The translations under genes and the position numbers were made by a program. Below the pieces are notes generated by a model. The model had not been told where the DNA came from. It worked only from the letters and a program-made list of their open reading frames with translations, and searched no databases. Shown here in pieces: positions 9,142 to 29,184 of a stretch of 64,000 nt of DNA. The stretch's first letter is position 1; each line of letters begins with the position of its first letter. Source of the DNA: Escherichia coli (GTDB taxonomy: Bacteria > Pseudomonadota > Gammaproteobacteria > Enterobacterales > Enterobacteriaceae); NCBI RefSeq assembly GCF_003019035.1, contig NZ_CP027447.1. One strand, written 5' to 3'.

Positions 9142-9253
9142 AACGAATCCTGATAAATGATGTTGTGCTGTCTCGCATTTTATCAGTCACATTGGTGGGG
9201 GCAATGATTTCTCTGTTGTGGCACCGCCATTACCAGACGGCACCACAATGTTA

Positions 9254-10543
9254 TCAGGGATAGGTAACCTGGAAAGTACTGGTGGCTTTAAATTCGCCGG
9301 GTTCAATAGCAATATTCCCGTCTTGTTTTAATGTAGCCTGGAAATGAAGTGGATACGTTATACCGTCATCTTCCGGGTAAATCGCATCTGAATCGTTATT
9401 CTGCGTCTGGCCCGTATTATCTTTATAAACAGAAGTTGAATCATTAGGTTTCAGTATCATGAGGGCACTTTTACTGTTTGCTAATCCTTCAATCAATACC
9501 CCAACGCCTTTTGCTGCGCCATTTCCTGTGAGAGTGTTACCAAGGAGTTGCCTGTTTTCAGTACCAACCTTTGTTGAAACTAATTTTGTCTCGATATTAG
9601 TCACACGAACGCAGTTTTGAAGTGAAATATCAAAAGGAACCGGTGTGGCACCGTTTCTTATTTGTGCTTCACTATACTCGCCCATTTTTACCGTAGAACC
9701 AGTAACAGATGTTCCACTTAACATAGCTGTAAAACAAGTGGGATTACTTAATTTAATATTTAGTAGGTCAAAATCAACTCGAAGAAAATAGCTGTGTTCG
9801 TTAATGCCGATACCAGCACCATAAGCTTTAAATGAATATAAATAGTTTGATGAGCGCGATAATGAAACTTGTTGAGTTACTGTTGGATCAAAGTTGGTAT
9901 CTGTATAAAATTCGATGGTAAGATTTTGATAAATACCGCCTACAGCCCAATATTTGCTGGATGTGTTGGCATTGTTACAACTTTGGTATAATATGCTTTC
10001 GCTTGGGTTGTACCATGAAAAATATTGTTCTGCAGAATCACCAATATATATTCCTGGTGAACTAACGTTAGTTACAGTACCGTAAGCTGACCACATATTT
10101 GAAATTAATATTGTATAATACAAACCGGGAACAGATGTATTGAATAGTTTATGGTTACCATATCTTTTTCCAGAGTCAACCATTGCATTTTCGATACGCA
10201 TTGCCCCGCCACTGGTGTTATTGCTTCTGTTACAATAAAGAAAGCCTCCGCCAGAAGCAGTATCTAACTGACTCCAATGTAATTTCACCCCTGTTGGACC
10301 CAGTTGTGTTGGTTTATAAAATACTAAATTATTTGTACTGGTACCATACCTGAACACGACTGTCACATCTCCATTTGGCCCGGTTTCTCTCCATTTTTGA
10401 TCTGACGGACCAACGCCGTAGTTATTCCCAACAACATATCCTACGAAATCATCAGTGCCAGCACTCGCGGTATAACAACTCAAGCACAGAATTAAAAAAA
10501 GAAAATATCTGAAGAATGTCTTCATTTTCACTCCACCATCCAC
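9254..10543 (-). CDS. yadC: fimbrial tip adhesin-like protein
   Basis: 429-aa ORF with signal peptide; C-terminal donor-strand-type motif ...TSTFQVTYP; last gene of the yad operon. Alternative start at 10525 (MKTFFRY...) has the better SD (ggtggag). Confidence 0.85.
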
Positions 10544-10578
10544 TGCTGTAATAGTCGCAGTAATTTGTTTTTGGTATG

Positions 10579-11175
10579 TTACTCGTAGTAAATATCAATT
10601 AATACATGGCTTATGATTTGGCCGGGCATGACATTTAATACAGGGTTGATTTTTTGCATCCGTGTATAGAATTTCCAGGATGAATTGTTTAAATCAGCAG
10701 TCATCACCGGATAAATTGAACGAGAACTGCCCGCTGGGGTAAGAACATTAAATATATTAGCCGGGTCCTGAGTGGAAAATATTACTACACCTACGTTTTG
10801 AGCGCCGGCGACATTTTCATTTGCAAAAATTTGCTGAGAGCCTGTCGCCATCACGCCATTAAGCGGTTTAAAGTTAATATGTAACTGATTTAACACATTT
10901 CCAGAACCCTGGATGGCGCAGTCAGTCACAGTGATAGTGAACTCTCTCCCACCCGGATAATCATCTTCAGGTGCGACGTTACCAGAAAAATAATCCACAC
11001 CAACCACACCAAGGTCGATATTACCAAGGTTACTGAGGCCACTTTTACATGTACTGTTCTTGATATTGGCAACCATATCCACATCCAGCCCTGCATATAC
11101 AGGACTGGATGTGGCAAACAATAATGCCAGGAACAGACTTGTTTTTATCTTAATTTTTAGTTGAGAGGAAAGCAT
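10579..11175 (-). CDS. yadK: fimbrial minor subunit
   Basis: 198-aa ORF with signal peptide [28 protein letters not shown] and C-terminal pilin motif ...LIDIYYE. Confidence 0.88.
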
Positions 11176-11201
11176 AATCGGTCCCTGACTTTAATGGCCT
11201 G

Positions 11202-11807
11202 TTAGTTATAGGTGATAGAAAATGTTGCAGGTGCGGAAAACGGACCGGCAGTGATGTCGGTTTTGCTTTTATTTTTCTCTACCACCAGGCGTGCACTCAT
11301 AGGATGATATACTGACGTAGTTCCTGTTGCAGTGGAGATATTCACTTCCTGAGCGACTGGTGTTACGCAGCTAAATTGAGTCTTGCCGTCTGTACCAGGT
11401 GTCGTGGTATTCCATACTTCAACCGCAACAGCATTTGCTTTATCAGCAGCGGCGGAGCCGTTTGCAAAACCAGGCCCATCGTTGGCTGCTCCTTCACAAG
11501 TTGCGCGTTTAGTTAATTTTACGAGTGCTTTTTTATTAGGAATACCAGCACAATCCTTAAACTGTAACTTAAATATTTTAATTTTTGTTTTGGCATCAAT
11601 TTCAGGAATGTAAGCATCCCCAAATGCAATAACAGAAATAGGCTGATCATTGTCATCCACCAGGCTGGCGGTACAGGTTCCCGTCTCTACGGTTGCTTTA
11701 ACATTCAGCTTAACGCTATCGGTAGCTGCAAACAATTGGCTGGTGAATAGGGATGCCGCAAAAAAAACACCAGCGGGTAGTCCATAACATAATGTTTTAG
11801 ATTTCAT
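11202..11807 (-). CDS. yadL: fimbrial minor subunit
   Basis: ORF 11202..11816; start taken at MKSKTLCYG (11807); C-terminal pilin motif ...ATFSITYN. Confidence 0.88.
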   Translation of the reverse strand: MKSKTLCYGLPAGVFFAASLFTSQLFAATDSVKLNVKATVETGTCTASLVDDNDQPISVIAFGDAYIPEIDAKTKIKIFKLQFKDCAGIPNKKALVKLTKRATCEGAANDGPGFANGSAAADKANAVAVEVWNTTTPGTDGKTQFSCVTPVAQEVNISTATGTTSVYHPMSARLVVEKNKSKTDITAGPFSAPATFSITYN

Positions 11808-11821
11808 TATTATCATCCCTG

Positions 11822-12388
11822 TTATTCATAAATGAAATTGAAAGTTGCCTGGGCGCGGAAATCGCCAGGAACACCACTGCCAGCCGTGGTTTCGCGCAGT
11901 GCAACGGTCAGTTCAAGAGTTTTGTCTGTATCACTAATTTCCCATGGAATAAAACTCGGCGCACTGTTTGGGATTAAGAATGTCGAATCATCTTCACCAA
12001 GTGCTTTTATACCCATACCAATATAATTAGTTGTTGATGTAGTGTCAGAAGAGAGTGGAACAATTAATGCGGGAGTAGTTCCGGAAGCATTCCCACTGAG
12101 CCTGGTATTGATTTTGCTGACGCCTGTGGTACAACCGCTGGCAACCAGATTAAAATTCGCCTGTGCTTGAGTCGTTTTATTTGCAATTTTGTCCAGACCA
12201 ATAGTTCCTGGGAAAGTTAATGTGTAGGTGTCACTCCCATCAGGGGTGACATTGTCGCCTGATAACGTAATGTTACAAGTTGATGCTTTTACGGTTGCTG
12301 TAAAATCAACATTAATGTCTGTTGCAAGTACAGAGGATGATAAAAATAATCCAGTCAGTATTGCCAATTTATGCAGTGTTATTCTCAT
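11822..12388 (-). CDS. yadM: fimbrial minor subunit
   Basis: ORF 11822..12433; start taken at MRITLHKLAIL (12388), which avoids overlap with the htrE 3' end; C-terminal motif ...ATFNFIYE. Confidence 0.85.
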   Translation of the reverse strand: MRITLHKLAILTGLFLSSSVLATDINVDFTATVKASTCNITLSGDNVTPDGSDTYTLTFPGTIGLDKIANKTTQAQANFNLVASGCTTGVSKINTRLSGNASGTTPALIVPLSSDTTSTTNYIGMGIKALGEDDSTFLIPNSAPSFIPWEISDTDKTLELTVALRETTAGSGVPGDFRAQATFNFIYE

Positions 12389-12407
12389 TATGTGAAATTC
12401 CCTGTTG

Positions 12408-15008
12408 TTACTGAATCTGACAACTAATTCCATTCAGAATAATAGTTTGCGCTATTTTTTCTGGTGCTGCGCTCTGCTGGTAATGAGCAAGGCAAGTGAC
12501 AGGTTTACCGTCGTCAAGCCAGTTGATACGTATGTTACCTTGTTGTTCTATACCTCGAACAAAGGCCTGACCACCTTGCCCTACATTGCCAATAATATTT
12601 CCGTTCTCGTCATAAATATCTGCGGCAAACGGAATGTTTTTACCGTCAGTTCGCTTGATGTTCATAATCGCTGATTGTCCCTGAACTGTTTCAAAACCAG
12701 CAAAGACAACAGACCCTTGGCGGGGGACAGTAATAGCACTGGTACTTTTCAATTCAACGTCATTTTCCAGACCGTTAATATCGAGTGCAATTCGGTTTTC
12801 ATGATAAGGGGAGAGCGCGTTAGTAACACCATATCCCCAACGATCTATCGTACTATTACCATAGTTAATACGCGCCCCTTTAGCTCCTGGCGCTTGTACA
12901 ACGGCCAGAGTGTCTGAGTCGCTAAAGCTGTCATTACTGAAGGTCAGGCCGCCGCTATGTAAAACAAATCCGCCGTCGGTATTAAATGAGATTTGACGGC
13001 TATTATCACTGCTTGCGGAAACTGAACTGGAAAGAGTTCCCCAGGGAGATTCATAGCTTGCATATCCGCCGATATAGCCCAAATCATCACTGGATTTCAT
13101 CATCGAATAGCCTGTATTGACGCTATAACTGATATGGTTTTCGGTGCTATAACCACTACTGCTGATACTGAGTTGATTGCTGCCGTTGAAATCACTATTT
13201 AACTGAGTATCAATGCTCTGAAAACCAGAGTCGCGATGTTCTGAACCCAGTAACTTTTCGATAGGAATGCTAAAGCTTAGATAGATGCTGTCTTCATTAC
13301 CGCCGTCCTGGCTCCAGGACCGTTGGGCACTAATGCTGTAGCTTCCCCACGATGCGCTGTTACTATAACCAATGGAGTAGTTAGTATTATTTTGTCCGTC
13401 CGCCCAATAGTCAGACCAACTTCCGGCAAGATAGAATGAGCCATAGTCTTTCTTTTCAAACTTGAGGGGTTGGTTAATACTAACCGTAACCTGATTTTTC
13501 ATGCGTGAATAGTTACGCATATTTTTAGGTTCCAGGTCCTGTTCCGGATGTTTTACTTCATCGATCAATGTCAGTGCATCGTTAAGCCCCAGATAATTCT
13601 GGGTTGAATAACGGTAAGCGGCGATATTGAGCGAGGTTCTTGTATCTTCAAATAACTTATTCCAGGAGATGCGATAGCTTTGCCCGCGGTAGGTTTTATC
13701 GTCCGGAATTTGCACATCCGAGTGGGTTACATCGACTGAAAACGCACCGTACGCGGTATTCAGGCCAAGGCCCAACAGCCCGGCAGTATAGTTATTATCG
13801 GTAATTTGAATACCGGTATAACCTGTAAGATAGTTGTTCAGACCATAGTAGTAGCTGGCCTGGAACAAATTTGGCTCATTTTGAATATCGTCTTTTAATA
13901 CCTGACCAGCACTGATGTCCCATCTTCCAACACCAGGGCGTTGCATCTGAATTACCGAAGAAAATGGCTGGGAAAAAGTTCGTTTTGTGCCATCAGATTC
14001 TTCGATAGTGATAATGAGATCGCTGCCGTAGCCTGATGGGCTTAAATCATCAATAACAAATGCTCCCGGCGGCACGGTAGTTTCATAGATTTTATAACCA
14101 CCCTGGGTAATGGTGACTTTTGCGTTGGTGTTAGCGACACCATGAATAATAGGCGCAAAACTAGCTAACGCAGGCGGTAGCATTCGGCTGTCGCTGTATA
14201 AACGAATACCGCGAATACTGACAGCATCAAAGGTTTCCCCAGTTGTGTATGACTCACCCACTATTAACTGTGAACGCAAAGAGGCCAGGTCGCGCTGCAA
14301 ATAGCGATTCTGAAAATCGTAATCACTGCCTACATTGGTCATCCAGTTGTAGTTGCCGGTTGCGCGAAGCCGCCATGCCCCCAGATTTATACCGCCGTTA
14401 AATGCCGCATAAACACTGTCGTTTTTTCTGTCTGGAATTTCGCTGTGATATGCGTTCACATTGTAGGCCAGCATTGCGGCGTTAATACCGTTTTCCCACA
14501 ATGACGGATCAACATAGTTTTGGTAATTCTTCATTATCCAGGCTTGAGGAACGTTGATATCCAGCCGTTGATCGTTGACGTCATAATGAACTGAAGCCTG
14601 GGGAATGATATTCGCCAAATCTAGACAATCTCCGAGTTCGCCTTCGCGCTGTAGAAGGATGGAATTCTCGGCATTTATATCTGGTCTATTAATGTGAAAC
14701 TGCAATAAATTCTTCAGGGTGATACAAGCCTGCGCATTCTTCTTACCTTCGAGGGTAATAAAGGAAATGCTTTGGTTGATAACCGGTTGATCATTGATAT
14801 AAACACTGACGTCATACACGCCGGGCAAGGTAGGGTTACCTTCGGTATACCGACTAAGGTCGATGTTAGAAGCATCTTGCCCCATCAAAAAGGTATTATC
14901 ATATTCAACGTGTTCAGCGCTTATGGCACAGGGGCTTAATAGCAATGCGCAAAACGAGGCTATATATGTAAGTTTGTTATTATGCGTTTTTATGATTTTT
15001 CTGGACAC
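12408..15008 (-). CDS. htrE: outer-membrane fimbrial usher
   Basis: 866-aa ORF MSRKIIKTHNNKLTYIASFCALLLSPCAISAEHVEYDNTFLMG...; size and position typical of PapC/FimD-family ushers. Confidence 0.93.
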   Translation of the reverse strand: MSRKIIKTHNNKLTYIASFCALLLSPCAISAEHVEYDNTFLMGQDASNIDLSRYTEGNPTLPGVYDVSVYINDQPVINQSISFITLEGKKNAQACITLKNLLQFHINRPDINAENSILLQREGELGDCLDLANIIPQASVHYDVNDQRLDINVPQAWIMKNYQNYVDPSLWENGINAAMLAYNVNAYHSEIPDRKNDSVYAAFNGGINLGAWRLRATGNYNWMTNVGSDYDFQNRYLQRDLASLRSQLIVGESYTTGETFDAVSIRGIRLYSDSRMLPPALASFAPIIHGVANTNAKVTITQGGYKIYETTVPPGAFVIDDLSPSGYGSDLIITIEESDGTKRTFSQPFSSVIQMQRPGVGRWDISAGQVLKDDIQNEPNLFQASYYYGLNNYLTGYTGIQITDNNYTAGLLGLGLNTAYGAFSVDVTHSDVQIPDDKTYRGQSYRISWNKLFEDTRTSLNIAAYRYSTQNYLGLNDALTLIDEVKHPEQDLEPKNMRNYSRMKNQVTVSINQPLKFEKKDYGSFYLAGSWSDYWADGQNNTNYSIGYSNSASWGSYSISAQRSWSQDGGNEDSIYLSFSIPIEKLLGSEHRDSGFQSIDTQLNSDFNGSNQLSISSSGYSTENHISYSVNTGYSMMKSSDDLGYIGGYASYESPWGTLSSSVSASSDNSRQISFNTDGGFVLHSGGLTFSNDSFSDSDTLAVVQAPGAKGARINYGNSTIDRWGYGVTNALSPYHENRIALDINGLENDVELKSTSAITVPRQGSVVFAGFETVQGQSAIMNIKRTDGKNIPFAADIYDENGNIIGNVGQGGQAFVRGIEQQGNIRINWLDDGKPVTCLAHYQQSAAPEKIAQTIILNGISCQIQ

Positions 15009-15042
15009 GTTGTGCTTCCTGCTGCGTTTATTCCTGATTTAG

Positions 15043-15783
15043 TTACAGGCTGGCATTGCCTTCAATTGCACCACCAAAGTCATTTATGGCGAAGAAATGC
15101 ACTTTGGCAGAACTTGCTTTACCACTCATGCCTTTTATGTAGAAGGTTTCTTCACTCAGCGGGGCTACCATTTTTACATCCAGGGGGTAGGTTTTGCCAT
15201 TGGCGACTAAATCACCACTACTGAATGAGACGTGATACGGTGTCGGATTTGCGACGCGCAATGCAGTTTTTCCAGCAGAGGTTGCCCATGACCATTTCAG
15301 TGCTGCGGGTGCATCTGATGGCAGTCCGTTTAAACCTTCCGGGCGATAAAATAATTTGATACGCGTACGGAATGCCAATTGCAGAAGACTCTGGTTGGCG
15401 ACTTTATCTGCGTCAGGTTTGGGTGGAACCTCGAGTACGTTAAACCAGAAAACACTTTCTCGGTCTTTTGGCAGCGGTGAGGAAGCCGTGTACATCAATT
15501 TAATAGTTTGACCACGTTTGGCATCAATTCGCGAAACAGGAGGGGTGGCGGTAAATGGGACAGTAATACTCCCTGGTTCAGCACTATCGTCGCCAGTATC
15601 CAGCCAGCTCTGAACGAGTAACGGATTATTCCCCTTATTTTCCAGCCGAACATTAACGCTTTTTTCATTACTTTTATAAATTACGCGAGTTCCTGAAATT
15701 ACGATATCTGCTATTGCCGATGCGCTTAAGCTCATACAAGTGGCGAAGCATACAGCTGCAGTATGTTTAGCGTTTAAAAACAT
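15043..15783 (-). CDS. yadV: periplasmic fimbrial chaperone (PapD-like)
   Basis: 246-aa ORF with signal peptide; PapD-like chaperone between usher and major subunit genes. Confidence 0.92.
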   Translation of the reverse strand: MFLNAKHTAAVCFATCMSLSASAIADIVISGTRVIYKSNEKSVNVRLENKGNNPLLVQSWLDTGDDSAEPGSITVPFTATPPVSRIDAKRGQTIKLMYTASSPLPKDRESVFWFNVLEVPPKPDADKVANQSLLQLAFRTRIKLFYRPEGLNGLPSDAPAALKWSWATSAGKTALRVANPTPYHVSFSSGDLVANGKTYPLDVKMVAPLSEETFYIKGMSGKASSAKVHFFAINDFGGAIEGNASL

Positions 15784-15813
15784 AAACCATTCCCGACAGA
15801 GTTAATTAAAATA

Positions 15814-15848
15814 GGGAGTAACATTCCACTATTAAGAAAGTTACTCCC
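15814..15848 (-). terminator. intra-operon stem-loop (partial terminator/attenuator) between major pilin gene yadN and chaperone gene yadV
   Basis: Inverted repeat gggagtaac (15814..15822) / gttactccc (15840..15848); on the minus-strand transcript it is followed by uauuuuaauu. Confidence 0.45.
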
Positions 15849-15880
15849 ATAGATATTCAGTTTATGAATCTAACGAAGGA

Positions 15881-16465
15881 TTACTGGTAAGTAATGGTAT
15901 ATGCAGTGTTGGTTTTAACATAACCAGCAGTTGGTGCCTGGCTTGCTTCAGCACGGACATAGGATGCTTTAAAATCATAGGTTGCAGATTTAGTCGTAGC
16001 GTCCAGCGTTTTTGTGTAAATATCGCCTGGGTTGTTAATTTGAACCTGTTTGATAGTGGAACCATCAATATTGTGCAGGGCAATATTTACGCCGTCAGAA
16101 GGCGTGTTAATAGACATATCGTTGTTCAGAGTCCCTTTGCTGTTGCCAAAGAACACGGAACCGAAGGTCATTTTTGCGGTGCTACCAGGATTCGGGTTTG
16201 CATTGCTGCAGTCAACGGTGATGCTGAAAGGTTTAGCTTTAGCACCTACGGTGTCATTCAGTACGCCAGCACTGATTTCAGCAACAGTTGCAGTTTGCAG
16301 AAGCACCAGGCCATCTTTGTTGCCACCATCAACACGGGTTTCACAGGTGTTATCAACTACCAGACCACTGATATTTAATTGGCCACCGTCCAGTGCAGCA
16401 GAAGCATTACCAGCAACCATTGCTAACATCAAGCTGGACAGCGCAAAACCTAATTTTTTAGACAT
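15881..16465 (-). CDS. yadN: fimbrial major subunit
   Basis: ORF 15881..16489; start taken at [23 protein letters not shown] (16465) preceded by SD aagga; C-terminal motif ...AYTITYQ. Confidence 0.9.
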
Positions 16466-16772
16466 AATAATCCTTGAATAATATTCCATGAGTTTAACTT
16501 TAATCAGCCCCCCTCAAGCAGGAAGTCCCGAGAAAGAAAAGGTGAATGGTTTGTTAATGATGGATGTTTGGATTTACCGAATGTAACATCTGTTCATCAT
16601 TAGGGGAGTATTGTGCACATTTAATATTAAATATCCACTTAATTCAATTTTAAGTAAAACTAAATATATAATGTGACGATAATGGTGTATATGGGCGGGG
16701 CTGCCAAGTGGGGTAAAATATTATATGTTTATGATTATATTCTGGGGCGAATTAATTGCAATTGTGGGAAGG

Positions 16773-17291
16773 CTATTTTCGGAATTTATTTATATTTGCA
16801 ACACTATTGTATTGCCATTTATTTAATTCATCGAATTTATTTATTCGTAAAAAGTTGTCTAATACTGTCCCATCAGGAAACACTAACTTCGGCGCAATTT
16901 CAAACAGTGGCCACAGCATAAAGCCACGATTTTTCATATCGTAGTGCGGAACGGTCAGACGTTCGGTATTTATTACTTCATTACCAAACAGCATGATGTC
17001 GAGATCCAGCGTGCGCGGTCCCCAGCGTTCAGCTTTACGGACGCGACCTTGCTGCAATTCGATACGTTGTGTGTGATTGAGTAGCTCTTCAGGGGCAAGA
17101 GTGGTTTCCAGCGCGACGGCGGCATTTAAGTAATCGGGTTGATCTTGCGGCCCCAGCGGTGGGGTGCGGTAAAACGAAGAAACAGCAAGAATGCGGCTTT
17201 CTGGAATATCGCCTAATGCTTTCAGGGCAGCATTGACCTGCTCCAGCGGAGAGGCCAGATTGCTGCCTATGGCAATATACGCCACTGTCAT
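16773..17291 (-). CDS. folK: 2-amino-4-hydroxy-6-hydroxymethyldihydropteridine pyrophosphokinase (HPPK)
   Basis: 172-aa [35 protein letters not shown]...; start ATG overlaps pcnB stop (ATGA). The last ~35 residues differ from the K-12 protein as I remember it (see findings). Confidence 0.9.
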
Positions 17292-18685
17292 GCGGTACCC
17301 TCACGACGCGGTGCGCGTTTGCGTGGACGACGAGTACGACGACGCGGTGACGGTTCTTCATCCAGTTCGTTAAGCATCCCTTTTTGGTCTGGCGGCGCGG
17401 AAACCTGGAACTCACCCCACCATTTCACCAGACGTTGCAGTTCAGCGTTACGCTCAACTTCGGCTCGTAAGGCCAACAGGTCGTATGCCGCACGGAACTT
17501 AGGATGCTCCAGCAGTTTCCATGCGCGTTTTCCCTGACGACGGGACATACGCAACTGCAACTGCCAGATATCGCGAGTTAGCGTAGTCAGACGTTTCGGG
17601 ATCGCCAGTGAACGGCAGGCTTCGTCCAGCACGTCGTTCATCGCCAGTGCGAAAGCGTCGTGATAGGTCAGGCCGCTCTCCTGAGCAATTTTCTGTGCCG
17701 TCTCCAGCAGTGGATACCAGAACATGGCGGCAAACAGGAACGCCGGGTTCACGCGCATATCGTTATGGATACGCGTATCGGTATTCTTCAGCACCTGTTC
17801 AATGATCCGCTCCATCGGGCTGTCGCCATTTTCCGTGAAGTAGCGGGTAATGGTCGGGAACAGCGGCTGGAACAGATGATATTCACACAGCAGCTTATAA
17901 GTTTCGTAACCGTAGCCCGCTTGCAACAGTTTCAGCGATTCTTCAAACAGACGTGCCGGTGGGATATCGTTCAGTAAGGTTGCCAGGCGTGGGATCGGCT
18001 CGGCGGTTTCCGGGCTGATGCGCATGCCCAATTTGGCGGCAAAACGAACCGCGCGAAGCATCCGTACCGGATCTTCACGGTAGCGCGTTTCCGGGTTACC
18101 AATCAGACGGATAACGCCGTCTTTCAGATCCTTCATGCCGCCAACGTAATCACGGACGGTAAAATCTGCCACGCTGTAATACAGGCTGTTGATAGTGAAA
18201 TCGCGGCGCTGGGCGTCTTCTTCGATGGAGCCGAAAATGTTGTCGCGCAGCAACATACCGTTTTGCCCGCGTTGGGAGGTCGTGCGGTCGCTGACGTTAC
18301 CTTCGTGATGTCCACGGAAGGTCGCAACTTCGATAATCTCCGGGCCAAACATCACATGAGCCAGACGGAAACGGCGACCCACCAGGCGGCAGTTACGGAA
18401 CAGTTTGCGCACCTGCTCTGGCGTGGCGTTGGTGGTCACGTCAAAATCTTTCGGCTTTTTGCCAAGTAACAGGTCGCGCACGCCGCCGCCAACCAGCCAG
18501 GCTTCGTATCCCGCTTTATTGAGCCTGTACATTACCTTCAGGGCATTTTCACTGATATCTTTGCGGGAAATAGCATGCTGCTCACGCGGGATCACCGTCA
18601 CCTGTGGACGGGCGACTGCCTGTTCAGCCTCGCTTTCCTCGCGGCTTAGCACCTTGCGGCAAAAATTAGCGACTCGGGTAAAAAT
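17288..18685 (-). CDS. pcnB: poly(A) polymerase I
   Basis: ORF track 17288..18706. Mature N-terminus (I)[21 protein letters not shown] begins at an AUU codon (18685..18683) preceded by SD gaggtg; nucleotidyltransferase motif [10 protein letters not shown]...DFD. Confidence 0.92.
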
Positions 18686-18744
18686 AGTACACCTCGGTAG
18701 TGTCAAACATCATTCAGGACAAAAAAATAGCGGCTAATCATAGC

Positions 18745-19671
18745 TCAGCATGACGCATTTGAGAATGTTGAATTTACAATTGCCGACTCAGGCACGGCAG
18801 TCAGCGTCCAGTTTTTGACGGCTGACTGAAGGATTTGCTCGACGCTGAAATCCTGCCAGTGTGTTTCTACCTGCTGACCCAGAAAATGAAGTGCCGCGAT
18901 TAACACCGGGCGCGGATCGCCTTTCGGCAACGCAGGCGCATGATTCTGCTTGGAAAGTTTAGCGCCTTGTGTGTTAAGCGCCAGCGGTAAATGAATGTAA
19001 TCTGGCACTTTCCAGCCAAAAAGCTGGTACAGCGAGATTTGTCGCACTGTCGGTTCAATCAAATCTGCCCCACGAACAATTTCTGTGACGTCCTGGAAGT
19101 GATCATCGACCACCACCGCCAGGTTATAGGCAAACAAACCATCACGACGATGAATAATAAAATCTTCTTGCGCCAGTTTTTCGTCGGCGTGAATAATTCC
19201 GCGTAGTTGATCAGTAAACTGCGTGACCGGATGCAACTGCCGAATTCGCACAGCCGCGTTGTCTGGTCCATGATGCAAATCCCGGCAATGACCGTCGTAA
19301 ATACCGCCAATGCTTTGAATACGCGCACGCGTGCAGGTGCAGTAATAACTTAGTCCTTGCTCATATAACCAGGCGAGTGCTTCGCGATAGGCGTGGTGAC
19401 GTTGCGATTGCCAGAGAACGTCGCCGTCCCAGTGCAGGCCGTAATGTTCCAGCTGGCGCAGGATAGTCTCTGCGGCACCGGGAACTTCACGAGGCGGGTC
19501 GATATCTTCTATGCGTACCAGCCAGCGACCTTGCCGGGCGCGAGCCTGTAAATAGCTGCCAAGCGCGGCAATCAGAGAGCCAAAATGAAGCTCGCCGGAA
19601 GGAGAGGGGGCGAAGCGACCAATATAGTGTGTGTCTGTCATCTCTTTGAACAAAAAATAAGGCGGGAGCAT
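18745..19671 (-). CDS. gluQ: glutamyl-Q tRNA(Asp) synthetase
   Basis: 308-aa ORF; class-I synthetase motifs ELHFGS and KLSK. The first 10 codons overlap the dksA terminator, so initiation at 19641 ([10 protein letters not shown]) is plausible. Confidence 0.9.
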
Positions 19672-26940: not shown

Positions 26941-29184
26941 ATGGCGCGTTCCAAAACTGCTCAGCCAAAACACTCACTGCGTAAAATCGCAGTTGTAGTA
27001 GCCACAGCGGTTAGCGGCATGTCTGTTTATGCACAGGCAGCGGTTGAACCGAAAGAAGACACTATCACCGTTACCGCTGCACCTGCGCCGCAAGAAAGCG
27101 CATGGGGGCCAGCTGCAACTATTGCGGCGCGACAGTCCGCTACCGGCACCAAAACAGATACACCGATTCAAAAAGTGCCACAGTCTATTTCTGTTGTGAC
27201 CGCCGAAGAGATGGCGCTGCATCAGCCGAAGTCAGTAAAAGAGGCGCTTAGCTACACGCCGGGTGTCTCTGTTGGTACGCGTGGCGCATCCAACACCTAT
27301 GACCACCTGATCATTCGCGGCTTTGCAGCAGAAGGCCAAAGTCAGAATAACTATCTGAATGGCCTAAAGTTGCAGGGCAACTTCTATAACGATGCGGTCA
27401 TCGACCCGTATATGCTGGAACGTGCTGAAATCATGCGTGGTCCGGTATCCGTGCTGTACGGGAAAAGCAGCCCTGGCGGCCTGTTGAACATGGTCAGCAA
27501 GCGCCCGACTACAGAACCGCTGAAAGAAATTCAGTTTAAAGCCGGTACTGACAGCCTGTTCCAGACTGGTTTTGACTTTAGCGATGCGCTGGATGATGAC
27601 GGCGTTTATTCTTATCGCCTGACCGGTCTTGCGCGTTCTGCCAATGCCCAGCAGAAAGGGTCAGAAGAGCAGCGTTATGCTATTGCACCGGCGTTCACCT
27701 GGCGTCCGGATGATAAAACCAATTTCACCTTCCTTTCTTACTTCCAGAACGAGCCGGAAACTGGTTATTACGGCTGGTTGCCGAAAGAGGGAACCGTTGA
27801 GCCGCTGCCGAACGGTAAGCGTCTGCCGACAGACTTTAACGAAGGGGCGAAGAACAACACCTATTCTCGTAACGAGAAGATGGTCGGCTACAGCTTCGAT
27901 CACGAATTTAACGATACCTTTACTGTGCGTCAGAACCTGCGCTTTGCTGAAAACAAAACCTCGCAAAACAGCGTTTATGGTTACGGCGTCTGCTCCGATC
28001 CGGCGAATGCTTACAGCAAACAGTGTGCGGCATTAGCGCCAGCGGATAAAGGCCATTATCTGGCACGTAAATACGTCGTTGATGATGAGAAGCTGCAAAA
28101 CTTCTCCGTTGATACCCAGTTGCAGAGCAAGTTTGCCACTGGCGATATCGACCACACTCTGCTGACCGGTGTCGACTTTATGCGTATGCGTAATGACATC
28201 AACGCCTGGTTTGGTTACGACGACTCTGTGCCACTGCTCGATCTGTACAATCCGGTGAATACCGATTTCGACTTCAATGCGAAAGACCCGGATAACTCCG
28301 GTCCGTACCGCATTCTGAATAAGCAGAAGCAAACGGGCGTTTATGTTCAGGATCAGGCGCAGTGGGATAAAGTGCTGGTCACCCTGGGCGGTCGTTACGA
28401 CTGGGCAGATCAAGAATCTCTTAACCGCGTAGCGGGAACGACCGATAAACGTGATGACAAACAGTTTACCTGGCGTGGTGGTGTTAACTACCTGTTTGAT
28501 AATGGTGTAACACCATACTTCAGCTATAGCGAATCGTTTGAACCTTCTTCGCAAGTTGGGAAGGATGGTAATATTTTCGCACCGTCTAAAGGTAAGCAGT
28601 ATGAAGTCGGCGTGAAATATGTACCGGAAGATCGTCCAATTGTAGTTACTGGTGCCGTGTATAATCTCACTAAAACCAACAACCTGATGGCGGACCCTGA
28701 GGGTTCCTTCTTCTCGGTTGAAGGTGGCGAGATCCGCGCTCGTGGCGTAGAAATTGAAGCGAAAGCGGCGCTGTCGGCGAGTGTTAACGTAGTCGGTTCT
28801 TATACTTACACCGATGCGGAATACACTACCGATACTACCTACAAAGGAAATACGCCTGCACAGGTGCCAAAACACATGGCTTCGCTGTGGGCTGACTATA
28901 CCTTCTTTGACGGTCCGCTTTCAGGTCTGACGCTGGGCACCGGTGGTCGTTATACTGGCTCCAGCTATGGTGATCCGGCTAACTCCTTTAAAGTGGGAAG
29001 TTATACGGTCGTGGATGCGTTAGTGCGTTATGATCTGGCGCGAGTCGGCATGGCGGGCTCCAACGTGGCGCTGCATGTTAACAACCTGTTCGATCGTGAA
29101 TACGTCGCCAGCTGCTTTAACACTTATGGCTGTTTCTGGGGCGCAGAACGTCAGGTCGTTGCAACCGCAACCTTCCGTTTCTAA
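26941..29184 (+). CDS. fhuA: ferrichrome outer-membrane transporter (TonB-dependent receptor)
   Basis: 747-aa ORF with signal peptide; TonB box DTITVTA; C-terminal aromatic residue (…ATATFRF). Confidence 0.96.
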   Translation: MARSKTAQPKHSLRKIAVVVATAVSGMSVYAQAAVEPKEDTITVTAAPAPQESAWGPAATIAARQSATGTKTDTPIQKVPQSISVVTAEEMALHQPKSVKEALSYTPGVSVGTRGASNTYDHLIIRGFAAEGQSQNNYLNGLKLQGNFYNDAVIDPYMLERAEIMRGPVSVLYGKSSPGGLLNMVSKRPTTEPLKEIQFKAGTDSLFQTGFDFSDALDDDGVYSYRLTGLARSANAQQKGSEEQRYAIAPAFTWRPDDKTNFTFLSYFQNEPETGYYGWLPKEGTVEPLPNGKRLPTDFNEGAKNNTYSRNEKMVGYSFDHEFNDTFTVRQNLRFAENKTSQNSVYGYGVCSDPANAYSKQCAALAPADKGHYLARKYVVDDEKLQNFSVDTQLQSKFATGDIDHTLLTGVDFMRMRNDINAWFGYDDSVPLLDLYNPVNTDFDFNAKDPDNSGPYRILNKQKQTGVYVQDQAQWDKVLVTLGGRYDWADQESLNRVAGTTDKRDDKQFTWRGGVNYLFDNGVTPYFSYSESFEPSSQVGKDGNIFAPSKGKQYEVGVKYVPEDRPIVVTGAVYNLTKTNNLMADPEGSFFSVEGGEIRARGVEIEAKAALSASVNVVGSYTYTDAEYTTDTTYKGNTPAQVPKHMASLWADYTFFDGPLSGLTLGTGGRYTGSSYGDPANSFKVGSYTVVDALVRYDLARVGMAGSNVALHVNNLFDREYVASCFNTYGCFWGAERQVVATATFRF

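Follow-up and report, generated by a model that had tools for sequence, protein, structure and literature searches.

Mosaic Ancestry and Stop-Codon Loss at the folK Edge of the Hypervariable yad Fimbrial Locus of Escherichia coli

Results and Discussion

Organization of the folK-yadN Region

The window, by which we mean the whole 64,000-nucleotide stretch of Escherichia coli DNA analysed here, carries a fimbrial locus between panB and folK, the gene for HPPK, and this locus extends into the 3' end of folK itself. The features of the region are the following:

9211..16868, minus strand: locus-specific segment of 7.66 kb, with yadN, a chaperone, an usher, three minor subunits and a yadC-type adhesin, plus the folK tail
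15881..16465, minus strand: yadN, major fimbrial subunit (SCU-301 annotation)
16379..16868: block of separate ancestry, made up of the folK tail, the spacer and the first ~29 codons of yadN (from difference maps with FDAARGOS_1285 and GF131)
16466..16772: folK-yadN spacer with the yadN promoter region, 307 bp, 34.2% G+C
16734..16761, minus strand: best sigma-70-like match, a candidate only (TTGCAA, 16 nt, TATAAT; 10 of 12 matches), directed towards yadN
16773..17291, minus strand: folK (HPPK) coding sequence, 172 codons plus a TAG stop at 16773..16775 (ORF list and SCU-301 RefSeq annotation)
16776..16814, minus strand: 13-codon read-through extension, untranslated spacer in other alleles
16812..16814, minus strand: former stop codon, CAA here and TAA in the nearest 159-aa relatives (DNA alignment)
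16815..16868, minus strand: folK codons 142-159, a hypervariable AT-rich tail, rare branch of the ST131-type class, G+C 22%
16869..17291, minus strand: folK codons 1-141, the conserved core part ending in FPDG, G+C 51.5%

The human commensal E. coli SCU-301 is 100% identical to the window over 15800..17400, and its RefSeq annotation places an identical 172-aa folK between pcnB and yadN. In the same annotation, the gene order and the position between folK and panB are those of a yad-type chaperone-usher operon. The first-pass annotation of this DNA had described a FolK of 172 aa and quoted its C-terminus, and both are borne out by the ORF at 16773..17291 (minus strand); it had also correctly described the K-12 enzyme as a protein of 159 aa ending in ...FEIAPELVFPDGEMLRQILHTRAFDKLNKW (also written ...PELVFPDGEMLRQILHTRAFDKLNKW). 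In a phmmer search against PDB chains, the window protein matched E. coli HPPK over residues 1-159 (E = 2.5e-95), as a member of the FolK/HPPK family should. The usual enterobacterial FolK has ~159 aa and a conserved terminal Trp; here W159 is kept and is followed by 13 residues, a mismatch in length that is no argument against membership of the family.

The yadN gene is 87% identical to that of K-12 at the nucleotide level. Its longest ORF starts at an ATG at 16489 (202 aa), and the annotated start lies at 16465 (194 aa, MSKKLGF...). We favour 16465 as the probable start because it falls within a block, 16444..16467 (TTATGTCTAAAAAATTAGGTTTTG), that is invariant among the K-12, ST131 and DS566-1 type alleles.

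Position of the Divergence Step in folK

In an alignment of nine E. coli alleles, folK is conserved through TTTCCTGATGG(G/A), which encodes FPDG (codons 138-141), and diverges strongly from window position 16868 downwards. The megablast matches of many genomes begin at 16869/16870, and the identity profile against K-12, ST131 and O157 has a sharp step at ~16870-16890. Upstream of this step, codons 1-141 show 0.9-10% nucleotide divergence among E. coli strains, most of it synonymous; beyond it, the window tail is 44-72% different from those of the K-12 and O157 classes. Between the window and K-12, 23 of 423 nucleotides differ in codons 1-141 (5.4%) and 24 of 54 in codons 142-159 (44%; Fisher p 2.8e-13). 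The corresponding figures are 4/423 (0.9%) and 26/54 (48%) against FDAARGOS_1285 (p 7.4e-24), and 43/423 (10.2%) and 39/54 (72%) against O157:H7 (p 2.5e-22), with head-versus-tail p-values of 1e-9 to 1e-24 across the classes. Over the whole of folK, identity between O157 and the window is 82-92%, rising to 95-100% towards pcnB. Base composition also differs between the two parts, the head having ~52% G+C and the tail 22% in the window, 33% in K-12 and 17% in ST131.

At the protein level, a single difference (E135K) separates the window from K-12 over residues 125-141, and 11 of the 18 residues at 142-159 differ, leaving 7 in common. The first-pass annotation had set a breakpoint at about residue 125 and regarded the last ~35 residues as diverged. 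A divergence step does exist, since K-12 is not identical here and the divergence is not uniform along folK, but it starts after residue 141, at 16868/16869, and the stretch concerned consists of residues 142-159 plus the 13 added ones.

FolK Tail Classes across E. coli

We found at least seven classes of FolK tail in E. coli, all of which have FPDG and all of which diverge after it. From residue 142 to the end they read as follows:

K-12: EMLRQILHTRAFDKLNKW
ST131: TILENLLRKNKFHELNKW
O157:H7: ETLREILTSLAVLQPAIWY
DS566-1: LSLVEALQAKGFNELDKW
MB06233: EMLQNRLTILNTSQPVIW
N96: ETLQARLTTFPPSPQHW
E69: ETLQSLLTSNASCPLPRW

Of 5,426 complete E. coli genomes typed for tail plus spacer, 3,063 have the K-12 type, about 1,020-1,078 the ST131 type and 437 the O157 type; the block of the window was found at 99% identity or more in two genomes and at about 89% identity in three. 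The junction reported in the first-pass annotation is therefore real, but as a boundary shared by all these allele classes it is species-wide and not peculiar to this strain.

Tail G+C is 17-35% in the K-12, ST131, DS566-1 and MB06233 types and 46-52% in O157 and N96. In the O157 and MB06233 types, as well as in E. albertii and E. whittamii, nucleotide homology to the folK of other genera reaches the stop codon. In the K-12, ST131 and DS566-1 types this homology ends at codons 141-146; because it ends near codon 146 in K-12, the K-12 reference tail is, to judge from these comparisons, a derived, AT-rich version.

Some of the sequences encountered in this survey need a word of their own. The 159-aa FolK of E. 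albertii shares a 90%-identity cluster with the 172-aa form, so clustering at this level merges tail classes. Three strains labelled E. coli (2013C-4282, E69 and N96) are as distant from the window in pcnB-folK (~7%) as E. whittamii and E. albertii are (91-92% identity), and are either cryptic-clade strains or carriers of large imports at pcnB-folK. A K-12-type E. coli folK is also present in an assembly of the Firmicute Terrisporobacter mayombei, on a 524-bp contig of 0.7x coverage (NZ_JAHZMP010000106.1), and is almost certainly contamination.

Constraint on the FolK C-Terminus

The substrate- and ATP-binding residues of HPPK, which we take to be (counting Met1) T43, P44, L46, Y54, N56, Q75, E78, R83, R89, W90, R93, D96, D98, T113, H116, Y117, R122 and F124, are all present in the window protein. 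In an alignment of 36 Enterobacteriaceae FolK sequences all of them lie in invariant or nearly invariant columns, and none lies within residues 142-172. The invariant columns of this alignment end at P139 and the tail is the least conserved part of the protein; beyond G141, only L144, L148 and W159 reach 90% conservation. The solved E. coli HPPK structures (1HKA, 1Q0N, 8SIF and others) are almost identical to the window FolK over residues 1-141, but they have the K-12-type tail, with which the window tail shares 7 of 18 residues before continuing for 13 more.

Synonymous changes prevail in the head, where the window and K-12 differ by 18 synonymous and 4 nonsynonymous codon changes and the head comparisons give 3-18 synonymous codon changes in 141 codons. 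Within tail classes the differences are mostly nonsynonymous (synonymous:nonsynonymous 0:3, 0:4 and 3:5), although these counts come from 18 codons only and are noisy. Judged from these patterns of substitution and conservation, the FolK tail is weakly constrained. The codon 141/142 junction is also the end of protein constraint, and part of the divergence step comes from relaxed selection and not from allele age. Relaxed constraint alone is nevertheless insufficient, because heads that are 1% different carry tails that are 48% different. As the raw divergence of the tails (44-48%) is far above the synonymous divergence of the adjacent head, the tail alleles would be older than the heads to which they are joined.

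Loss of the folK Stop Codon

The cause of the longer FolK, which had escaped the first-pass annotation, is the loss of a stop codon. In the DNA alignment, 2013C-4282, 382634_2f, ST131 and K-12 read AAATGG-TAA, and the window and GF131 read AAATGG-CAA, continuing as CAA-TAC-AAT-...-AAA-TAG. The coding strand differs at one base, C here in place of T (window position 16814); because TAA became CAA the stop was removed, and translation runs on into the spacer for 13 more residues.

The 172-aa folK allele is real. The extension does hang on one base, and only 2 of the 5,426 complete genomes have it, as might be expected if the ORF were misannotated or its stop codon had been misread in sequencing or assembly. 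We nonetheless hold such an artefact to be exceedingly improbable, given that SCU-301 and GF131, two complete genomes obtained independently and differing in country and source, have the same CAA codon, and that 130 contigs carry a record of exactly this 172-aa protein and 53 that of the GF131 variant, in which two residues differ.

An AlphaFold2 model, made with the 36 Enterobacteriaceae sequences as input, has predicted helices at residues 144-150 and 153-159. Residues 160-172 have a pLDDT of 41-47, and the 13-residue extension is for this reason probably disordered; it is probably also neutral, or at least tolerated. An independent C-terminal extension beyond the conserved Trp was seen in a Pseudocitrobacter MAG (L017:3001-3498), whose FolK has 166 aa and ends in ...PPVWRDTWVNE.

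A Block of Separate Ancestry between folK and yadN

Difference maps against two strains give reversed patterns across the junction. Compared with FDAARGOS_1285, the window has no differences at 15800..16378, 215 differing alignment columns at 16379..16868, and 4 differences to the right of this block, up to 17400. Compared with GF131, it has 102 differences at 15800..16358, 4 at 16359..16868, and few to the right of the block up to 17400. The crossovers that delimit the block lie within 16359..16378 on the left and within 16869..16883 on the right.

The block is 99.2% identical to that of GF131, 87.6% to that of 2013C-4282 and about 77% to the ST131 class, and only its yadN end aligns with K-12; 2013C-4282, its next relative after GF131, has a pcnB-folK region that is itself ~7% diverged. 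To the left of the block, the mature part of yadN (15881..16378) is 100% identical to FDAARGOS_1285 and 89% identical to GF131. This extends to the other structural genes, in that the yad genes of GF131 are 11-37% diverged from those of the window, and FDAARGOS_1285 has yad genes identical to the window's left of the block, but a K-12-type block. On the other side, the folK head and pcnB are 99.1-99.8% identical among the window, GF131, FDAARGOS_1285 and the B2-type strain EC08, and the tails of these strains differ by 15-48%. Divergence thus changes abruptly at a defined point, and the adjacent segments have different nearest relatives. Because head, block and yad genes are incongruent in this respect, these sequences require recombination in two places, one in the signal-peptide region of yadN and one at codon 141/142 or directly beside it. 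The proposal in the first-pass annotation of a recombination breakpoint inside the 3' end of folK is supported by these maps, with their opposite patterns for GF131 and FDAARGOS_1285.

The left end of the yad locus mirrors the block. Here, 8992..9518 (the panB 5' end, the panB-yadC spacer and the yadC 3' end) forms a left hinge of the locus that is identical to GF131 up to 9518, as a counterpart to 16379..16868. At 8992..9317 the window matches GF131 and not FDAARGOS_1285, co-varying with the block, and from 9519 onwards it matches FDAARGOS_1285 and not GF131. As both flanks go with GF131 and the 6.8-kb interior with FDAARGOS_1285, a cassette swap needs fewer events: exchange of the 6.8-kb yad structural genes in a single double crossover accounts for the pattern more economically than import of the block.

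It is possible, though in our view doubtful, that a short patch was imported instead, an FDAARGOS_1285-like chromosome having received ~490 bp by gene conversion from a GF131-like or more diverged Escherichia donor in place of a K-12-type block. Set against FDAARGOS_1285, indeed, the local differences are confined to 16379..16868, with near identity on either side; over the right flank, 16870..18706, the window has slightly higher identity with this strain (99.78%) than with GF131 (99.13%), and the next relative of the block occurs in a strain with about 7% divergence in pcnB-folK. However, a second patch would be needed at 8992..9317, where the window matches GF131 and not FDAARGOS_1285, and a patch that has on each side sequence diverging by 40-50% from the recipient would need both of its crossovers to fall precisely on the two conserved hinges. 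From these three haplotypes any one could be the recombinant, and the direction in the cassette swap that we favour is one that we infer. The fimbrial promoter region, which the first-pass annotation took to be imported, is thus part of a block of different ancestry, but its import is the less economical reading, since 8992..9317 co-varies with it.

Mosaicism is not confined to this part of the window. A second strongly mosaic locus is fhuA, which codes for a receptor used by phages and colicins; the stretch 27001..29000 has 36-142 differences per 500 bp against FDAARGOS_1285 and 0-1 against GF131. In gluQRS (19001..19500) there are ~31 differences per 500 bp against both strains, with 0-9 in neighbouring bins, and this patch looks like a small imported segment specific to the lineage of this strain. 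The rpnC/yadD region between panD and panC (7001..7500) has 50-66 differences per 500 bp against both strains, over a background of 1-3%.

The yad Locus in the Enterobacteriaceae

Among 80 species representatives, most Enterobacteriaceae have the order pcnB-folK-panB with folK and panB ~120 bp apart; in Escherichia species, Pseudocitrobacter, some Citrobacter and Superficieibacter these two genes are separated by a yad-like operon. When the folK-panB regions of Citrobacter, Salmonella, Klebsiella and Enterobacter are compared with the window, homology ends at 16870 and does not begin again until 9210, ~70 bp upstream of panB. No relic of an ancestral folK tail was found near panB, homology resuming only at 9210, inside the old folK-panB spacer. 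We also considered a mobile genomic island and rejected it: there is no tRNA in 8000..18000, the repeats are short and at chance level, and the annotation shows neither an integrase nor a transposase from panB to folK.

Yad is a core-associated fimbrial type in E. coli (PMC3559732), and its genes show 45-100% nucleotide conservation, two B2 subtypes and recombination between phylogroups (PMC13245861; PMC3559732). This published diversity concerns the same locus as that described here. In the literature searched, we found no description of the FolK tail classes, of the 172-aa allele or of the side of the locus next to folK. Nor is the divergence limited to the promoter region that the first-pass annotation singled out; the whole yad operon is diverged from K-12.

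The folK-yadN Spacer and Promoter Region

The AT-richness of the 307-bp spacer, already remarked in the first-pass annotation, is confirmed by its 34.2% G+C; more broadly, G+C falls from 52-61% in pcnB and the 5' part of folK to 25-35% across 16550..16900. A simple consensus scan, which is not the published PlatProm, gave four weak promoter-like matches, against 3.3 +/- 2.0 in shuffled sequences, the best being the candidate at 16734..16761. Two blocks of 8 nt or more, and no others, are invariant among the alleles of K-12, ST131 and DS566-1 type: AATATAAATA (16787..16796, within the extension here) and the yadN start region. An Rfam search of 16200..17100 with E up to 1 returned no RNA family. 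A terminator scan of the minus strand found no intrinsic terminator-like site between folK and yadN, its only hits lying inside folK; transcription of pcnB-folK might therefore read into the yad promoter region, barring a Rho or H-NS stop.

H-NS occupancy at the yad promoter region is known from the literature for K-12 and CFT073. In K-12, the yadN/folK spacer is an H-NS-bound promoter island, 156927_379 (PMC3661553). For the yad operon, repression by H-NS and induction by serum have been reported (PMC13245861). The K-12 island (156927+379) reaches position 157305, that is, 53 nt into folK (157253..157732), and ends at most 4 nt from the codon 141/142 boundary. Promoter islands are AT-rich, H-NS-bound and found beside horizontally acquired genes (PMC3661553), and the window spacer is likewise AT-rich and occupies the same position. 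However, it does not align with the K-12 spacer, and our simple scan showed no excess of promoter-like sites in it. By analogy with K-12, the yad operon of this strain may also be silenced by H-NS.

Origin of the folK Junction

The best explanation overall, and in our view a very probable one, is that 16868/16869 is the right edge of the hypervariable yad locus, with mosaic exchange and stop loss. The yad locus lies between folK and panB in Escherichia, and E. coli would keep several old, deeply diverged versions of it. As these would be too unlike for internal recombination, crossovers would resolve in the nearest conserved sequence, namely, on the right, folK as far as FPDG; inside the locus, the start and signal-peptide region of yadN; and on the left, panB and the 3' end of yadC. 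Lying outside the conserved stretch, the last 18 FolK codons would travel with the AT-rich, H-NS-silenced spacer that holds the yadN promoter. A double crossover that swapped the 6.8-kb structural cassette would have given this strain its rare spacer-plus-tail block, as in GF131, together with yad structural genes as in FDAARGOS_1285. In the lineage of the GF131/SCU-301 block, the T-to-C change turned the TAA of folK into CAA, so that 13 codons are read into the spacer.

Fast mutation of the tail and spacer in place, under relaxed constraint and AT bias and without recombination, would agree with the tail being less conserved than the rest of FolK throughout the Enterobacteriaceae sampled and with the mostly nonsynonymous changes within classes. 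It is very improbable all the same, as near-identical heads (0.7-2% at the nucleotide level) are found with tails diverged by 46-50%, identical tails occur with heads and yad genes of different ancestry, and a divergence of 44-48% is out of reach even for neutral sites when the synonymous sites next to them differ by a few percent. We also regard it as quite unlikely that the tail or the extension was selected for itself, whether for FolK stability or interactions or as AT-rich DNA in the H-NS-bound yad control region. The 17-35% G+C of the K-12, ST131, DS566-1 and MB06233 tails beside 52% in the head, the K-12 promoter island that enters folK and stops next to the codon 141/142 boundary, and the predominance of nonsynonymous tail changes would fit such selection; the 46-52% G+C of the O157 and N96 tails, the low predicted confidence of the extension and a count of promoter-like sites not above shuffled expectation argue against it.

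A related conjecture, which we also consider unlikely, is that the last 18 folK codons have a dual role, as a loosely constrained C-terminal helix and as the outer part of the H-NS-bound yad silencing and promoter region, selection on the latter driving both low G+C and tail diversity. If so, the K-12 C-terminus seen in the HPPK structures listed above would be a by-product of regulatory selection, and the stop-loss allele would carry the reading frame one step further into regulatory DNA.

Significance of the folK Junction

The classic case of core genes hitchhiking with a hypervariable surface-antigen locus in E. coli is gnd, beside the rfb O-antigen cluster. The folK junction, read as the edge of the yad locus, resembles it in that a core gene lies beside a deeply diverged locus, with a sharp step of divergence decaying into the core gene and with incongruent segments. 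It differs in that the variable zone enters the reading frame of an essential enzyme, whose last 18 residues are polymorphic, and in that the neighbour is a chaperone-usher fimbrial operon and not a polysaccharide cluster. The phenomenon itself, mosaic exchange with hitchhiking where a hypervariable surface-structure locus ends, is known; the junction provides a new and well-resolved example of it, and leaves the general understanding of how such loci evolve unchanged. What it adds is that the edge of the locus lies inside an essential gene and that loss of the stop codon lengthened the protein.

FolK (HPPK) is an antibacterial drug target for which nearly all work has used the K-12 sequence. 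In this single species, at least seven very different classes of its last 18 residues are found, the K-12 version being derived and AT-rich. This is relevant wherever folK or the yadN promoter is used in typing, primers or reporter constructs, and for structure-based design directed at the C-terminus. The 172-aa allele further suggests that the enzyme tolerates a 13-residue C-terminal extension.
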